From the NCBI RefSeq assembly GCF_003018115.1, contig NZ_CP027457.1: a DNA stretch of 64,000 nt. One strand, given 5' to 3'. Of the stretch, positions 1 to 18,875 are shown one piece after another. The first letter of the stretch is position 1. Every line of letters starts with the position of its first letter. A program made the position numbers and the translations under genes. The notes under the pieces were generated by a model, which had not been told where the DNA came from, made no database searches, and saw only the letters and a program-made list of their open reading frames with translations. Origin of the DNA: Escherichia coli. GTDB lineage: Bacteria; Pseudomonadota; Gammaproteobacteria; Enterobacterales; Enterobacteriaceae.

Positions 1-657
1 ACCTGGGTCGGCGGCATTGGTATGCGCTATCGTTTGTACTCCCGACTAGGGTTACCGGGCAGCACTATTACGCGGATTTTCTCGCTCAGTATTACCACCA
101 ACTGGCTGGGCTATATTTTACTGGCAGGGATTATCTTTACCGCAGGCGTGGTGGAGTTGCCGGACCACTGGTATGTCGATCAAACCACGCTGCGCATTCT
201 CGGCATTGGCTTACTGATGATTATTGCGGTTTATTTGTGGTTTTGCGCTTTCGCGAAGCACCGCCATATGACCATCAAAGGGCAAAAGCTGGTGCTGCCT
301 TCGTGGAAATTCGCCCTCGCCCAGATGCTGATTTCCAGCGTTAACTGGATGGTAATGGGAGCGATAATCTGGCTGTTACTTGGTCAAAGCGTGAACTATT
401 TCTTTGTACTGGGCGTGTTGCTGGTTAGTAGTATTGCTGGTGTCATCGTGCATATTCCGGCGGGGATTGGTGTGCTGGAAGCGGTGTTTATCGCACTACT
501 GGCTGGGGAGCATACATCCAAGGGCACAATTATCGCCGCCCTACTCGCTTACCGTGTGCTGTATTACTTTATCCCGCTGCTGCTGGCGCTGATCTGTTAC
601 CTGTTGCTGGAAAGCCAGGCGAAGAAGCTGCGGGCGAAAAATGAAGCGGCGATGTGA
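1..657 (+). CDS. ybhN: Inner membrane protein YbhN (UPF0104 family), C-terminal part; 5' end lies outside the window
   Basis: Multi-TM hydrophobic translation in the expected position next to ybhL/moa; ORF open to the window start. Confidence 0.65.
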   Translation, partial: TWVGGIGMRYRLYSRLGLPGSTITRIFSLSITTNWLGYILLAGIIFTAGVVELPDHWYVDQTTLRILGIGLLMIIAVYLWFCAFAKHRHMTIKGQKLVLPSWKFALAQMLISSVNWMVMGAIIWLLLGQSVNYFFVLGVLLVSSIAGVIVHIPAGIGVLEAVFIALLAGEHTSKGTIIAALLAYRVLYYFIPLLLALICYLLLESQAKKLRAKNEAAM

Positions 658-660
658 AGT

Positions 661-939
661 TCAGTTAAGTTCTTTTGGTTTAAGTTCGGGATGCTGTTTA
701 TAGATGGGGTTCATGATGTCGATTAGCATGCGCCCCATTATTTCACCGATGGCGGAACGATAAGTATCAAGCTCAGATTCATCGCAAGTTTGCTGAACAA
801 GTGAAACGGAATTATCTAATTTCGCACCAATCTCAAGCATTAATGCACTAATTTCTGCTGCGACAGTTTTATCTTTAAACATTCTACAAATCCTTATTAT
901 TGCTAAATTCAAAGGAAACCACGTTTTCCATTTCATCAC
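661..939 (-). CDS. Hypothetical acidic protein in AT-rich segment (possible 3' part of a frameshifted gene)
   Basis: 92-aa ORF directly abutting the ybhN stop; overlaps upstream ORF. Confidence 0.3.
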   Translation of the reverse strand: MMKWKTWFPLNLAIIRICRMFKDKTVAAEISALMLEIGAKLDNSVSLVQQTCDESELDTYRSAIGEIMGRMLIDIMNPIYKQHPELKPKELN

Positions 940-1252
940 TTAAGGGATAATCATCTCTTTTTGTATAGATCAAATCGGTTGTTTGGAGAATTAGTTCTTG
1001 TATGACAGTCTCGAGCCTTTCAGGGATCAGCGATTCAATATCTTCAAGCTCACAACCATGATAAATTATATCTAGTAATTCTTTATCACAACCTTTCCTC
1101 CGTAGAGTACGGGCAAAAAAAGGACAGAAAACAAGTAATTCAGATTCATCTATGGTTACTGCTCCCCTTTCCAGCGAGTGTAAAACCCCTAAAAGCAGAA
1201 TAGCCATAAATTTATCAACATATTTATTTTCTATTGTGCAAACTAATGACAT
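884..1252 (-). CDS. Hypothetical acidic protein in AT-rich segment (possible 5' part of a frameshifted gene)
   Basis: 122-aa ORF, low GC, overlaps next ORF by about 56 nt in another frame. Confidence 0.3.
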   Translation of the reverse strand: MSLVCTIENKYVDKFMAILLLGVLHSLERGAVTIDESELLVFCPFFARTLRRKGCDKELLDIIYHGCELEDIESLIPERLETVIQELILQTTDLIYTKRDDYPLSDEMENVVSFEFSNNKDL

Positions 1253-1303
1253 AAAAACCGCTCTTGTTTAATATCATAAATATTTTTAAATATATCTGGA
1301 ATT

Positions 1304-1648
1304 TCATTTCCTTTTTGCATCAATTTTCTTTAAAAATAACACCGACATATACGATAGCATGAATGATAAAATCATTAAAATAACTCGCAATGGATGCAAA
1401 CCGCCCCACGAAAACAATAAATATAATATTGCAATACAAGATAGTGTGTGCGTGTACTTATTTGCTATAAATGGCGTCAGGTATACCACGGGGAGGAGAA
1501 CAAAAAGCATATAAAAGCGGATAAATCCCAAACCAACTCCGTGACTTGACGGCCTGAAATATGACGTATATATCTCGTGACCGAGGTCATGTGCCATCAC
1601 CATAATCATAACACCTGTAATCGCAATAATTATCTTTATCACTTTCAT
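1304..1648 (-). CDS. Hypothetical small hydrophobic membrane protein
   Basis: 114-aa ORF with hydrophobic stretches, very AT-rich. Confidence 0.3.
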   Translation of the reverse strand: MKVIKIIIAITGVMIMVMAHDLGHEIYTSYFRPSSHGVGLGFIRFYMLFVLLPVVYLTPFIANKYTHTLSCIAILYLLFSWGGLHPLRVILMILSFMLSYMSVLFLKKIDAKRK

Positions 1649-1940
1649 AATTTTATTTCTTCAATATGCGTCCATTACCTGCACCGTGAATGCCTGGGCC
1701 AGACAAGCACAAGAGCGTTCATGGCAGGAAACCGAAACAAGCGAATAAAATCGCAATAGTGTTTTATCCCGCCAGCTACCAGCCACCCTTTGAGGGGCCG
1801 GTTTTTTCCGGGCAAGTAAGTGACAGCGAATTGACGGTTCAAATGAGTTATCTATCCCTGAATTGACGCATACGGATAGTGTGGCATTTGCAGCGACTGA
1901 GTTCTCATGAAAATGAGCGAAACAGCCTTTATATAATCCG

Positions 1941-1964
1941 AAAAAATCCCGGCACCAGGCCGGG
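1941..1964 (-). terminator. Rho-independent terminator downstream of ybhL
   Basis: Hairpin CCGGC-ACCAG-GCCGG followed by a T-tract on the minus strand, just after the ybhL stop. Confidence 0.6.
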
Positions 1965-1984
1965 ATCAGCAGGAAGAAGAGAAT

Positions 1985-2689
1985 TTAACGGCGGTTGCCG
2001 AAGATCCGCAGCAACATCAGGAACAGGTTGATGAAATCGAGATACAGCGTTAATGCGCCAAGAATGGAATATTTGCGCAGGTTCGACGTGTCGCGGGTAT
2101 CTATCTGCTCACCCATATTTTTCAGTTTCTGGGTGTCATACGCCGTCAATCCGACAAAGACAATCACGCCGATGTAGGTGACTGCCCACATCAACGCTTC
2201 GCTTTTCAGCCAGAAGTTGACCAGCGATGCCAACACAATGCCGATTAACGCCATAAACAGCATATTACCAAAGCCGCTTAGATCGCGCTTCGTGGTGTAA
2301 CCATACAGGCTCATTGCGCCGAACATCCCGGCAGTAACGACGAAAGTACTGGCGATAGAAGCAGCGGTATAGACAATGAAAATACTGGAAAGCGTAAGAC
2401 CCGTCAGCGCCGAATAAAGCATAAAGAGCATCGTCGTTACACCTGCGCTCAGCTTTTGAATCATCGCTGATAACACAATAACCAATGCTAATTGCGCGAT
2501 GATCAGACCGATTAAAAAGACACGGTTAGTGAACAACAGCTCCATCACGGCCGCGGAATTAGCCGCATACCAGGCAACAAATGCGGTCAGCAACAAGCCA
2601 ACGGTCATCCAGCCATAGACTTGCGCCATATAAGTTTGCAAGCCAGCCCGGGGTTGTACGATTGAATCAGAACGTGGGAATCTGTCCAT
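1985..2689 (-). CDS. ybhL: BAX inhibitor-1 family inner membrane protein YbhL
   Basis: Translation MDRFPRSDSIVQPRAGLQTYMAQVYGWMTVGLL..., about 234 aa, 7-TM BI-1 pattern. Confidence 0.85.
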   Translation of the reverse strand: MDRFPRSDSIVQPRAGLQTYMAQVYGWMTVGLLLTAFVAWYAANSAAVMELLFTNRVFLIGLIIAQLALVIVLSAMIQKLSAGVTTMLFMLYSALTGLTLSSIFIVYTAASIASTFVVTAGMFGAMSLYGYTTKRDLSGFGNMLFMALIGIVLASLVNFWLKSEALMWAVTYIGVIVFVGLTAYDTQKLKNMGEQIDTRDTSNLRKYSILGALTLYLDFINLFLMLLRIFGNRR

Positions 2690-4539: not shown

Positions 4540-5529
4540 TTAGCCGCCAATGTACGATAAGTTTTGCGTAATACCGGTGTTGTTTTGATGCAGGAAATGG
4601 GTCTGTTTCTTCTCCCGCAGCGCCGCTGAAATACGCGCTTCCAGCGCCTGTTGCTGGGCATCGTCTTCCAGCAGATCGCGCAGGTTAACACCGCCTTCAC
4701 CAAACAGGCAGAGATGGAGTTTACCAATGGAGGAAACGCGCAGACGGTTGCAAGTGGCGCAGAAGTCTTTTTCATACGGCATGATAAGGCCAATCTCTCC
4801 GGCGTAATCCGGATGACAAAAGACTTGCGCGGGACCGTCGCTGCGTTGACGTAATTGGTGGATCCAGCCGCGACGCAGTAGCTCGTCACGCAGAACCTGA
4901 CCAGAGATGTGATGCTTACGGAAGAGCTCGCTGCCCTCGCCCGTTTCCATCAGTTCGATGAAACGCAGCTGGATGGGACGATGCTGGATCCAGTTCAGAA
5001 AGGTGTCGAGCTGGTGATGATTAACATCACGCATCAGCACTGTATTGACTTTGACCTTCTCAAAACCGGCCTCAAATGCAGCATCAATCCCCGCCATGAC
5101 CTGGTTGAATTTATCCTGCCCGGTAATAGCGTGAAACTGGCGGGCGTCCAGACTGTCGACACTGACGTTGATGCCAGTAAGTCCAGCATCGCGCCAGTTC
5201 GCCACATCGCGTTCCAGACGGTAACCATTGGTGGTGACCGCAATCTGGCGGATAGCGTCGTTTTCTCGCACAGCGGCGATGATATCGGTAAAGTCGCGGC
5301 GTAAAGACGGCTCACCGCCTGTCAGGCGCACTTTTTCGGTGCCCAGACTGGCGAAGGCGCGCGTAACCCGGCGAATTTCATCGACGGTCAGAAAGCCTTT
5401 ATTGGTGACGCCGCTCGGTTTGTAGCCATCCGGCAGGCAGTAGGTGCAACGAAAGTTACACACATCGGTAATCGACAGGCGCAAGTAGTAAAACTTACGC
5501 GCAAATGCATCAGTCAGTTGTGAAGCCAT
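4540..5529 (-). CDS. moaA: GTP 3',8-cyclase MoaA (radical SAM)
   Basis: Translation from [31 protein letters not shown] (CxxxCxxC radical SAM motif); 329 aa. Confidence 0.92.
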
Positions 5530-5534
5530 GTACA

Positions 5535-5680
5535 CCTTTCCAGATACGGGAGGCGAAGTCATTTCTTCCTTCGCCCTGGTGGCAATCTTTACGAGCATTG
5601 TCACGGCCAAAGCACCGTATCAGTTGACCCAGGTGCAGAGGCTAGAGTGTTTAGTGGTTAAGCCGATACTAGCGTGTAAA
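5535..5680 (-). ncRNA. Probable molybdenum cofactor (Moco) riboswitch in the moaA leader
   Basis: Position only: structured 5' UTR immediately upstream of moaA, where E. coli carries the Moco RNA motif; boundaries approximate. Confidence 0.4.
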
Positions 5681-15691: not shown

Positions 15692-16756
15692 CTATTTCAC
15701 AAGCATATTTTTATTATTTCTTTTGAAAACAACATTGGTTAACAACCTTATTACAGGTTTTTCTAAGTAGTAACTAAATATCATTGACGTTATTAAAGCG
15801 AAGATAATCATTGCAGCATAAAGGATAATTGCTCCTGTATAGTCGGTTATTTTATAACCAATGCATCTTAAAAAGGTTGAAAGCACAATGAAAGAAATTG
15901 TATGAATCAAATATATAGAATACGAAGCATCCCCAAGCTTCATAAGTGCTTTGTGAACAAATGATTTTTCATTGAAAGAAATATTTATTGCGCCAAGAAC
16001 ACATAAGAGAGATGGCACCCCTACGTATATAATACGCTCATCACCAACACCCCATACATTAGTCCCAACAATTAAAAATAGACCTACAGCAAAACATAAA
16101 ACTGATAGTTTTATGTTTTGAAGAATCTTTTTCTGATAAACATAGCCGCATATCATACCGAATATGAATTCAAGATGTATCGGGCTGAAAAATAATCTTT
16201 GGATAAAGTTCAAGCTGCCCCAGTTATAAAACAAGAATGTATAAGTACAGAATAGGACGCCAGTGGCAACTCTTCCATATTTACCAAAAATACAGCACAT
16301 TAATGCTAGCGACATATAGAAGTAAACTTCAAAATTTAGTGTCCAACTTATTGCATAAATGGTTTCTGCCTTCCATGATTCAGATGGGTAAAACAAAAAC
16401 ATAGCGCTTGTTACAAACTTCCTGAAAGCATCATCAGGAATCTTGCCAGTTACCATTAAGGCTATAGCATAAAGCAAAAGAGACATCCAGAATGCTGGAG
16501 CTACGCGAATTAATCTTTTAATTATAAAATCACCAATACCACGATCGCTCCTCATGCACTTTCCGATAGTTATGTACATAACCATTCCAGAAATGACGAA
16601 AAATATATCAACTCCGTACTTACCGAACTGTACGAACCCCTGATCAGGGAGAATAAGTCGCGTAGATGGAACGAAGTGGTTTACTGCTACCTTGGCATGG
16701 ATGAACACTACCATCAAGGCCGCAATGCCTCGTAAATACTGAAGCCCAATAATCAT
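15692..16756 (-). CDS. Acyltransferase-3 family membrane protein, probable O-antigen acetyltransferase (seroconversion)
   Basis: 354-aa multi-TM translation MIIGLQYLRGIAALMVVFIHAKV...; located between att and tailspike as in Sf6 oac; AT-rich. Confidence 0.7.
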   Translation of the reverse strand: MIIGLQYLRGIAALMVVFIHAKVAVNHFVPSTRLILPDQGFVQFGKYGVDIFFVISGMVMYITIGKCMRSDRGIGDFIIKRLIRVAPAFWMSLLLYAIALMVTGKIPDDAFRKFVTSAMFLFYPSESWKAETIYAISWTLNFEVYFYMSLALMCCIFGKYGRVATGVLFCTYTFLFYNWGSLNFIQRLFFSPIHLEFIFGMICGYVYQKKILQNIKLSVLCFAVGLFLIVGTNVWGVGDERIIYVGVPSLLCVLGAINISFNEKSFVHKALMKLGDASYSIYLIHTISFIVLSTFLRCIGYKITDYTGAIILYAAMIIFALITSMIFSYYLEKPVIRLLTNVVFKRNNKNMLVK

Positions 16757-16767
16757 GAGGTTCTCCT

Positions 16768-16789
16768 AAAATGACATCCATGTCATTTT
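16768..16789. promoter_or_regulatory. Perfect 22-bp palindrome between the tailspike stop and the acyltransferase start
   Basis: AAAATGACATCCATGTCATTTT; possible terminator/attenuator or operator. Confidence 0.4.
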
Positions 16790-16850
16790 AGCGACTAAAC
16801 CACGATGGTAAAGATAATCATAACAACTATTCAACAGAGTAGTTTTGTGT

Positions 16851-18875
16851 TTAGTAAGCAACAAACGTTCCTGGAGATCCAGTGGCAGTGCATCGCAACC
16901 TGAATGGTGCCGTGGTTGCATTCACCAATACAAAATCCTCCCCCTTTCGCCAATAACCACCAGTTGGTATACCCTGAATCCCATTTTGACTATAACCTAA
17001 GTTGTACGTAATTTCTCTTAGGTATGGACCAATGTTTGTTTGCCAAGTTCCTGTTTCCACCCATACATTACTGTGTCGGAGTGATCTCCCCTGAAATGAA
17101 GCATTTGGTTGAGGAGTTACACCATCAACCATTAGACCAATAAATTTCATGGATCGAAGATAGCTAGGAGCTGAAGGTGAAACAGGAAATTCAAATGGCA
17201 CAGTTATTGTCGTTGTCGATAGATAATTGTTTCTGTCCCAAAATTTTATATTGATATCACCAAGATTAAACCTGTTGACATTTCTTATGTCAGCAATTCT
17301 AGAATCCATTAAAGATGGATTGTAAACAAACAAAAGATCACAATCCCCAATTGTTAAATTGTTCAAGGCTCCTTTATCACACGATAGAAACCTTACTCCC
17401 TCTATTTCTCCTGTTATTCTTCCTATAGACACCTCTTCTGCTAGAGTATTGGCGGACCTAGCATTCATAACAGACTTTGGAGTGTTACCATCTGTACCAC
17501 GAAATATATGTAAATGCTCAATATTTATTCTTGAACAATCAGCATAACTAACCGCACCAAGCCCGGTTCCGCCAACTTCAGCATATAGTATTGTCATGTT
17601 TGCATCTGTTGCACCAGCGATAGCTTCTTCACTTCCATCATAGTGGAAATAATCTATATGTATGCGACCACCTCCGTATATGCCATTGTCTGCACAATTT
17701 TTTAGATACATTCTGTTTACTGTTACTTCGATATCCTGCGCTGAATTAAGTATAGAACAACAGTCTACGGCAGATATTGAATTAATAATGTTATTTTTCG
17801 ACCCGTCAAAAAAATGCAGCAGTTGAGGCATAGAAGCATTGCTGTTACCAGTATTTACACAATTGTATCCTCTTATGACCCCAACAACATTATTGGAACC
17901 CTTGAACTGTATTCCAATTACACCAGTACCTGAACCAGATGGCGCGTAAAGCCCAGTTATATACACTGATTTAAAGGTATTGTTACTACCAGATACCCTG
18001 ATAGGCATGCAAGCTGTTTCATTGGCATCAATATTTAGATTAAAATATCCTTTTTCTTTAGTTATATTTACAATATTTCCATAAGTTGGTGATGTTGTAA
18101 TTAACTTGCCGTCATTAATACAATTAATTGAACGGGCTACAGAGGTTGTTCCTGTAAGTTTAATTGTAATCCCGTCTATCAGCACAGGACACCCAGGATA
18201 AGACATTGCAGAGTTGAATAGTTCTGTTTGGTCAACATCGCAACTATCTACAAGGCCTAAAGATTGTGCCTTAACTTCAGTTTGATATACAATAGCCTTA
18301 AGTCCATTTTCTATATCATGAATATTTGAATTATCTTGTATGCCTGAGCTAGATATTATATATACACAACTGCCACCGTCACCTTTTGAAAAAAAACCCC
18401 TCGTCTCAACAATATCGCCTTCCTTTAAATTCATATCTGATTTCATATCAGATACGGTGTCATATTTTCGACCATAATGTGATGAAAGACCTCCAATAAT
18501 AGCATATCCATTGCTACTTGATAAATCTACCCTTAGCCGGTCAGGGTCATACTTCAGCACATTAGGAAAATAGAACTGCTGTGCACCATACGCATCATAA
18601 ACAGCCATAGAATGGCCTTGCACGGTAACGAATTTGGCAATCTGTCCGTTATATACAGGGTAACCAGCAGCGTTAATGATGATTGGTTGAGAAACAGGAA
18701 CGTGAGAACCGTCTTCATTCTCTACATAAACCTGAATCTGGTTTTCAGGATTTACAGGGTCAGTGTCAATTTTACCGATATAAATTTTGCCATTGGCAAC
18801 CGCTTTAAAAGAACGCGCCATAGTGAAGAGTTGCGAAGGCATGCTTACCACAACATTTGCGGTGATATCTGACAT
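16851..18875 (-). CDS. Tailspike protein with P22 gp9-like N-terminal head-binding domain and divergent receptor-binding domain
   Basis: N-terminus [59 protein letters not shown] closely matches P22 tailspike; remainder unrelated. Confidence 0.85.

Follow-up and report, generated by a model that had tools for sequence, protein, structure and literature searches.

A small accessory islet between ybhN and ybhL

What kind of DNA fills the gap between ybhN and ybhL in Escherichia coli strains that have lost ybhM? Of 5,426 complete E. coli genomes that were screened, 4,788 have ybhM over its entire length, and only 26 are without any match to it. The stretch examined here (contig NZ_CP027457.1; hereafter the window) comprises 64,000 nucleotides (nt) of the ybhN-ybhL-moa region of E. 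coli, and contains no intact ybhM between ybhN and ybhL. The segment found there instead, at positions 661-1648, is best explained as a small islet of accessory DNA at a variable site, with an orphan immunity gene at its core. The gene in question encodes a member of the unstudied protein family DUF3969 (PF13108). We consider it likely that DUF3969 proteins are the immunity partners of a toxin domain of ~85 amino acids (aa), and that the copy in the window is an orphan of this kind.

The initial annotation of the gap described an AT-rich, strain-specific segment that carries three open reading frames (ORFs) on the minus strand in place of ybhM, and each part of this description holds. Specifically, positions 661-1648 average 35.4% G+C, against a mean of 48.8% over the entire window and 52% in ybhN, and the minimum of 24.5% is reached at 1201-1400. 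Any part of 661-1700 is matched in only 38 of the 5,426 genomes and the full stretch in 12. Positions 400-2300 are 100% identical to the same region of O169:H41-type strains such as F9792. The three minus-strand ORFs lie at 1304-1648 (114 aa), 884-1252 (122 aa) and 661-939 (92 aa). Past the end of ybhN at 657, the locus therefore reads as a 73-aa gene (contained in the 92-aa ORF, as explained below), the 122-aa gene, a 51-nt spacer and the 114-aa ORF, all on the minus strand.

The 122-aa ORF is a complete DUF3969 gene

The 122-aa ORF (884-1252, minus strand) encodes an acidic protein (pI 4.4) whose residues 10-91 match PF13108 with an E-value of 1.2e-18 and a score of 67.5 bits, against a gathering cut-off of 25. 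RefSeq likewise names the product a DUF3969 family protein. The protein has a length that is normal for the family (105-125 aa) and keeps every nearly invariant family residue, namely G22, P44, G66, E68, L69, E70 and P77. A single-chain AlphaFold2 (AF2) model predicts a helical bundle with a mean predicted local distance difference test (pLDDT) score of 93.8. Comparison of E. coli and E. albertii alleles gives a ratio of nonsynonymous to synonymous divergence (dN/dS) of 0.24-0.36 at dS values of ~0.7-0.9, and dS between E. coli alleles alone reaches 0.86. The DUF3969 gene is under purifying selection.

Scans of the three proteins of the segment against NCBIfam, PADLOC and PHROGs returned nothing meaningful, and PADLOC gave no match at E<=1. 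Our literature search found no mention of DUF3969 or PF13108.

DUF3969 genes recur directly downstream of one putative toxin domain

A profile search collected 437 DUF3969 clusters at 50% identity, most of which are stand-alone proteins of 100-125 aa (~110 aa being typical). Longer members are fused to Barstar, to DUF4176 plus CdiI_4, to HEAT repeats, to pentapeptide repeats or to a cold-shock domain. All of these except the cold-shock domain are typical fusion partners in multi-immunity proteins. Among 107 neighboring genes surveyed on the DUF3969 strand are ones for PT-VENN, RHS, Tox-SHH, Colicin-DNase, CdiI_3, DUF4279 and HEAT_2 proteins.

A more specific association emerges from 31 DUF3969 loci in which ORFs were called, 28 of them reached through a family alignment of 19 sequences and three by exact look-up. 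The 19-sequence scan favors family members with the motif GCELED[IV]E, and the counts given here apply to a sample so weighted. At 13 of the 31 loci, the co-oriented gene immediately upstream of DUF3969 ends in the same domain of ~85 aa. This gene overlaps the DUF3969 start or stops no more than 25 nt before it in 12 of the 13 cases, and the remaining gap (locus L007) is 75 nt. One of the 13 (locus L026) has only the C-terminal half of the domain. Copies of the domain are 45-80% identical to each other, even though they come from Proteus, Entomohabitans, Paenibacillus, Clostridium, Enterococcus and other genera.

The proteins that end in this domain are otherwise diverse. In Proteus cibi, the carrier is a 1650-aa protein of the CdiA type, with haemagglutinin repeats and a PT-VENN domain, and in a member of the Bacillota it is a 1617-aa protein with RHS repeats. 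Other carriers are a PT-HINT protein from Saccharibacillus, an Rhs-core protein from Paenibacillus, and proteins of only 135-138 aa that open with a sequence resembling a signal peptide. The same pairing appears in independent sequence collections. On a mobilizable plasmid of Moraxella bovis (L048:1-3114), a filamentous-haemagglutinin gene with a CdiA-type C-terminal toxin region (CdiA-CT) ends in the domain and is overlapped by 4 nt by an annotated DUF3969 gene, which is followed by an orphan ‘polymorphic toxin type 24’ module. Twelve more M. bovis plasmids carry the toxin domain. Finally, Staphylococcus phage phiSP44-1 (L047:2264-3090) has a signal-peptide toxin and a DUF3969 gene beside its integrase gene, with E-values of 7e-37 and 7e-29, respectively.

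Thus, the pairing of DUF3969 tracks the toxin domain and not the delivery machinery, since it is seen with CdiA/VENN, RHS, PT-HINT, Rhs-core and signal-peptide carriers alike. To be encoded just downstream of the same toxin domain, whichever of several unrelated delivery systems carries that domain, is the hallmark of a small cognate immunity protein. This pairing appears to be undescribed, as it is found neither in Pfam or NCBIfam nor in the literature searched. In two Enterobacterales assemblies, GCA_028598805 (L005:2674-3465) and GCA_028598555 (L006:3325-5210), genes for Tad2-like/DUF7823 proteins were also seen within 1-2 kb of signal-peptide toxin and DUF3969 pairs.

The domain itself has the consensus IKNVYxSIKxAPKYPxGFKxxQNGTxKxxVNNxxVLxxLRKIESGKWxKVYKDGYDAxGKKVSIHYFQSQSGKVFDVKVKxGWSN. 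An AlphaFold2 model (pLDDT 89) predicts a strand and a helix followed by three strands. The domain includes invariant His, Arg, Lys and Tyr residues, and from these residues alone one might guess that it is a small nuclease.

By analogy with CdiI and RhsI, the pair could operate as follows. The ~85-aa toxin domain would be delivered by CdiA through type V secretion, by Rhs or PT-HINT proteins, or by means of a plain signal peptide. DUF3969, a predicted cytoplasmic helical-bundle protein, would inhibit this domain by binding it one-to-one. For a strain without this toxin, DUF3969 would then serve as an orphan or acquired immunity gene that protects the cell against toxin-making neighbors.

The window copy as a probable orphan immunity gene

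Is there a toxin for the DUF3969 protein of the window to neutralize? Neither tblastn with 11 toxin sequences nor a hidden Markov model search of the six-frame translation revealed a toxin domain anywhere in the 64 kb, and the window holds a single DUF3969 copy. The absence of a toxin domain makes this copy a probable orphan immunity gene. A place directly downstream of a toxin, as is expected of immunity genes of the CdiI/RhsI type, is therefore a property of the DUF3969 family and not of this particular copy.

Relatives of the toxin are present elsewhere in the species. A related toxin/DUF3969 module is matched at 68% DNA identity in 604 of the 5,426 complete E. coli genomes, and in the loci that were inspected, which lie outside the window (L038:6980-7600 from E. 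coli 2014C-4587, L037 and L045), it is a decayed module in a VgrG-linked Rhs locus near ydcD/pptA. Its toxin C-terminal region has a stop codon at an invariant Trp, and the adjoining DUF3969 gene is frameshifted. To judge from these remnants, E. coli has met this toxin before. The 6.8-kb E. coli ‘plasmid’ pL65-4 was considered as a possible bacteriocin plasmid, but it encodes the same proteins as the decayed Rhs-locus module and is probably an assembly fragment. A further DUF3969 gene, intact and likewise an orphan (P0013), is located among genes for ISAs1, a glucosaminidase, DUF3828 and TsiV.

The initial annotation suspected a toxin/immunity or exclusion function because a small membrane protein is encoded beside acidic partners. 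The link to toxins and immunity survives, though it is carried by the acidic 122-aa DUF3969 protein alone; the proposed pairing of membrane and acidic proteins is not supported, and the partner of DUF3969 at other loci, the ~85-aa domain, is absent from the window. Both the 114-aa protein and the 73-aa protein are missing beside every DUF3969 gene examined outside Escherichia, which leaves such a pairing unsupported.

The closest known parallels are the CdiI and RhsI proteins and the orphan CT/immunity modules described previously (Poole et al., 2011; PMC3150448). Like these, the relatives of the window protein are small, cytoplasmic and encoded downstream of, and in the same orientation as, the toxin end of a CdiA (after VENN) or Rhs protein. 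They follow their toxin domain across delivery systems and occur in arrays with other toxin/immunity cassettes. Unlike these, the window copy stands alone, with no cdiA, rhs, toxin fragment, VENN or Rhs-core remnant, or secretion genes nearby. Furthermore, DUF3969 and its toxin fall outside the named Imm, CdiI, Ntox and Tox families of Pfam and NCBIfam, and their binding is presumed by analogy.

A second parallel exists with immunity genes that persist apart from any toxin. Orphan immunity arrays, or acquired interbacterial defence islands, occur in the Bacteroidales and in Vibrio cholerae. The islet resembles them in having an immunity gene without a toxin, in holding DUF3969 or a SUKH-4 gene at the same spot depending on the strain, in being AT-rich, and in the deep divergence of its alleles. 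In contrast to these arrays, it is tiny (one to three genes), has no integrase or mobile-element backbone, and appears to go back to the ancestor of the genus and to have been mostly lost since, instead of being a recent gain; its protective role is likewise putative.

Several observations weigh against the view that DUF3969 is the immunity partner of the ~85-aa domain and that the window copy still acts as such. The remaining 18 of the 31 DUF3969 loci lack such a toxin upstream. No relative of the ~85-aa domain could be detected in Pfam, NCBIfam or the PDB, and the sole ground for regarding it as toxic is its C-terminal place on CdiA and Rhs carriers. Neutralization of the toxin by DUF3969, and protection in competition, are likewise proposed by analogy. 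Structure comparison of the DUF3969 model yielded matches only to generic helical bundles. Compared with the closest DUF3969 proteins adjoining an intact toxin, the window allele has an identity of just 40-44%; it may differ from them in specificity, and it may have lost its match to any circulating toxin. A scan of the segment for promoters and terminators, the spacer at 1253-1303 included, gave nothing significant, and thus no convincing promoter. There is also an unexplained match between DUF3969 profile positions 62-87 and residues 186-211 of PDB 9n69 chain F (E 3e-4), a ‘TIGR02646 family protein’ of the HNH type, with GCE(L/I)ED(I/V) as the common motif.

If the assignment is right nonetheless, an unstudied family of 437 clusters gains a likely function that can be tested, and its partner is an unusually well-conserved toxin domain, with 45-80% identity persisting from Proteus to the Clostridia. 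The rare replacement of ybhM would be explained as cargo for interbacterial competition, and the ybhN-ybhL spacer as a small hotspot. Confirmation would widen the catalogue of contact-dependent inhibition (CDI), Rhs and secreted toxins, and would provide a case of immunity genes that outlive their toxins in enteric bacteria.

History of the ybhN-ybhL gap

Comparison with K-12-type genomes suggests how the gap came to differ among strains. In a blastn alignment with a K-12-like locus, positions 600-675 match at 97%, such that homology on the ybhN side ends at 675, and it restarts at 1941 (1941-2100 at 87.5%). The 18 nt directly past the ybhN stop in K-12-type genomes are shared with the last codons of the 73-aa gene. 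Given this relic, the module has the look of an ancestral Escherichia feature that has mostly been lost, not of a new insertion. We infer that the module is old in the genus and that the K-12 state is a deletion derivative. The window strain seems in addition to have swapped ybhM and most of a third BI-1 paralogue for the segment with the 114-aa ORF. Flanking direct repeats, for which the initial annotation proposed a search, were not found around the segment, and our literature search on ybhM variation turned up nothing useful.

YbhM and other BI-1 paralogues are the usual occupants of the slot between ybhL and ybhN, and a third BI-1 paralogue is present at the gap in 14% of genomes. In the window, ~330 nt without an intact gene separate the 114-aa ORF from the ybhL terminator, and here we find an internally deleted remnant of a BI-1 paralogue (1684-1860, minus strand), detected by tblastn with YbhM. 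The last 30 residues of YbhM (205-234) match positions 1773-1684 at 43% identity (E 8e-5), all in the same frame, and the remnant contains an in-frame stop. The earlier statement that only one BI-1 gene is recognizable is accordingly right for intact genes, the one being ybhL, but overlooks this remnant. No intact ORF in 661-1648 resembles BI-1 by Pfam, BLASTP or tblastn, as the initial annotation had surmised; only the remnant does so. One partial likeness to the usual occupants is that the 114-aa ORF, like them, would encode a membrane protein with several spans.

Strain EC42405 reveals a further arrangement. Here an uncharacterized 154-aa gene and a SUKH-4 immunity gene take the place of the 73-aa gene, DUF3969 is retained, and the recombination breakpoint corresponds to ~904, within the 3′ end of DUF3969. 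The SUKH-4 protein matches PF14435 with 27.6 bits (cut-off 25.5) and is the sole example of another immunity family at this spot. This replacement is the kind of cassette swapping that is typical of immunity loci.

Could the segment nevertheless be decaying junk, that is, functionless remnants of an old Escherichia insertion whose ORFs are open by chance or recency? Decay is certainly visible around it. The module has been lost from most E. coli strains, with the 18-nt relic left behind in K-12, the BI-1 remnant adjoins the segment, and IS2 has inserted in the 3′ end of DUF3969 in one lineage. The 114-aa ORF lacks a RefSeq annotation and has a dN/dS of 0.49, and the Rhs-linked toxin/DUF3969 copy of the 604 genomes is clearly decayed. 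Against this, the DUF3969 and 73-aa genes are intact, with dN/dS values of about 0.25-0.36 at dS of about 0.4-0.9, E. albertii being included in the case of DUF3969. The 73-aa protein has relatives in E. albertii and E. fergusonii as well, DUF3969 retains its full set of conserved residues, and it is unlikely that long frames would stay open by chance in DNA of 35% G+C. We consequently hold neutral decay of the whole segment to be improbable, and retain the orphan immunity gene as the better account.

The 73-aa gene is separate from DUF3969

The initial annotation took the two overlapping acidic ORFs of 122 and 92 aa for one gene split by a frameshift. This idea is refuted. The 122-aa ORF covers the DUF3969 profile at a normal family length and the downstream gene is a separate one, which is why the frameshift reading was rejected. 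Specifically, the 92-aa ORF at 661-939 is a 73-aa gene lengthened to an upstream GTG. The 73-aa gene itself (661-882, minus strand; annotated separately as coding sequence WP_001612671.1) encodes an acidic protein (pI 4.8), and has its own AAGGA sequence and ATG start codon, the latter 1 nt past the DUF3969 stop (TAG-a-ATG). Relatives of each of the two proteins are separate and full length, the 73-aa protein keeping its length in Shigella, E. fergusonii and E. albertii, and, depending on the allele, the two genes are separated by 1 nt or 13 nt or share 8 nt.

The 24 relatives of the 73-aa protein, mostly of exactly this length, are confined to E. coli, Shigella, E. albertii and E. fergusonii, and none occurs at any DUF3969 locus examined outside Escherichia. 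The gene has a dN/dS of 0.25 at a dS of 0.38. Its product has no match in Pfam, NCBIfam, PADLOC or PHROGs. The gene, which is translationally coupled to DUF3969, is perhaps another orphan immunity gene.

Two small, translationally coupled genes only 1 nt apart could also form a self-contained type II toxin-antitoxin (TA) or addiction pair with no link to secreted toxins, and it fits such a pair that both proteins are acidic and helical and that both genes reside in AT-rich accessory DNA under purifying selection. We judge this very unlikely. A TA partner should accompany DUF3969, whereas the 73-aa protein is confined to Escherichia and missing from the DUF3969 loci examined elsewhere, and strain EC42405 keeps DUF3969 with the 73-aa gene replaced. 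The partner that does recur beside DUF3969 is the C-terminal domain of CdiA and Rhs proteins, and neither of the two proteins matches TA, DNA-binding or defence families.

The 114-aa ORF as a candidate gene

The third ORF, here called orf114 (1304-1648, minus strand), has no RefSeq annotation. Its predicted product of 114 aa is basic (pI 9.9) and hydrophobic, with at least three predicted membrane spans by hydropathy. Relatives are near-identical and found only in E. coli, with none at the DUF3969 loci examined outside Escherichia, and a Pfam search at E<=1 gave a chance-level match only. The possibility that orf114 is a diverged ybhM or other BI-1 gene was rejected, as no similarity was found by Pfam (no Bax1-I match at E<=1), BLASTP or tblastn.

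The orf114 frame is unbroken in each of the three allele types, whose DNA identities are 100%, 98% and 96%, and its dN/dS of 0.49 is computed from only 11 differences. An estimate from base composition, made by hand, places the chance of a 114-codon open frame in DNA of 36% G+C at ~2e-4 per frame. The locus tags in RefSeq go straight from A5T63_RS04210 (ybhL) to RS04220 (DUF3969), and the absent RS04215 falls at orf114. The skipped number suggests that an earlier annotation had a gene here that was later dropped. We treat orf114 as a candidate gene, perhaps for a membrane protein whose role is either immunity-like or unrelated.

The immunity proteins of pore-forming colicins are about 110-180 aa long and have three or four membrane spans. 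The predicted orf114 product is like them in size, basic charge and number of predicted spans, and immunity-type genes surround it. It differs from them in having no similarity to any Pfam family beyond the chance-level match and no known toxin partner, and so we offer the resemblance as a lead only.

The explanation to which we give the least credence is that orf114, as a membrane protein, acts with soluble partners in anti-phage defence or superinfection exclusion. A small membrane protein and acidic proteins in AT-rich, strain-specific DNA would fit, and a toxin and DUF3969 pair is also a moron in a Staphylococcus prophage, but no meaningful PADLOC or PHROGs family match was obtained and the phage example is itself a secreted-toxin/immunity pair.

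A bolder extension of the orphan immunity interpretation can be imagined, although we rate it as a long shot. The ybhN-ybhL gap might be a long-lived interbacterial-defence slot of Escherichia in which every variable occupant is an immunity gene. If so, DUF3969 would neutralize an undescribed ~85-aa toxin whose fold has no solved relative, and whose reach extends from Proteobacteria to Firmicutes by way of type V secretion, Rhs proteins, signal peptides and even phages. Under the same premise, orf114, ybhM and the third BI-1 paralogue would guard against membrane-targeting effectors, and this would provide a function for ybhM-type paralogues.

Flanks and other features of the window

The islet is bordered by conserved genes. 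On one side lies the 3′ part of ybhN (1-657, plus strand), as annotated by RefSeq in the identical strain F9792. On the other side is ybhL (1985-2689, minus strand; RefSeq WP_000373624.1), the single intact gene of the BI-1/YccA family. Its intrinsic terminator (1941-1966, minus strand), in which TCCCGGC...GCCGGGA precedes a run of T on that strand, was read from the sequence and was missed by a consensus scan. Between orf114 and DUF3969, the 51-nt spacer (1253-1303) has a G+C content of only 19.6%. No Rfam family gave a significant match in the segment.

Farther along the window, a molybdenum cofactor riboswitch is annotated at ~5517-5661 upstream of moaA, as expected for this operon. A defective lambdoid prophage with truncated tail genes occupies ~17290-39633, where the lambda attachment site separates ybhC from ybhB/bio, and its cargo resembles that of DLP12 (emrE, ybcK, rusA, quuD, an OmpC-like porin gene and essD/rrrD). 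Abutting the tail-fibre end of the prophage, on the side of ybhB, at ~15885-17216, is a gene for a diguanylate cyclase with a sensor domain, which is probably prophage cargo or otherwise strain-specific.

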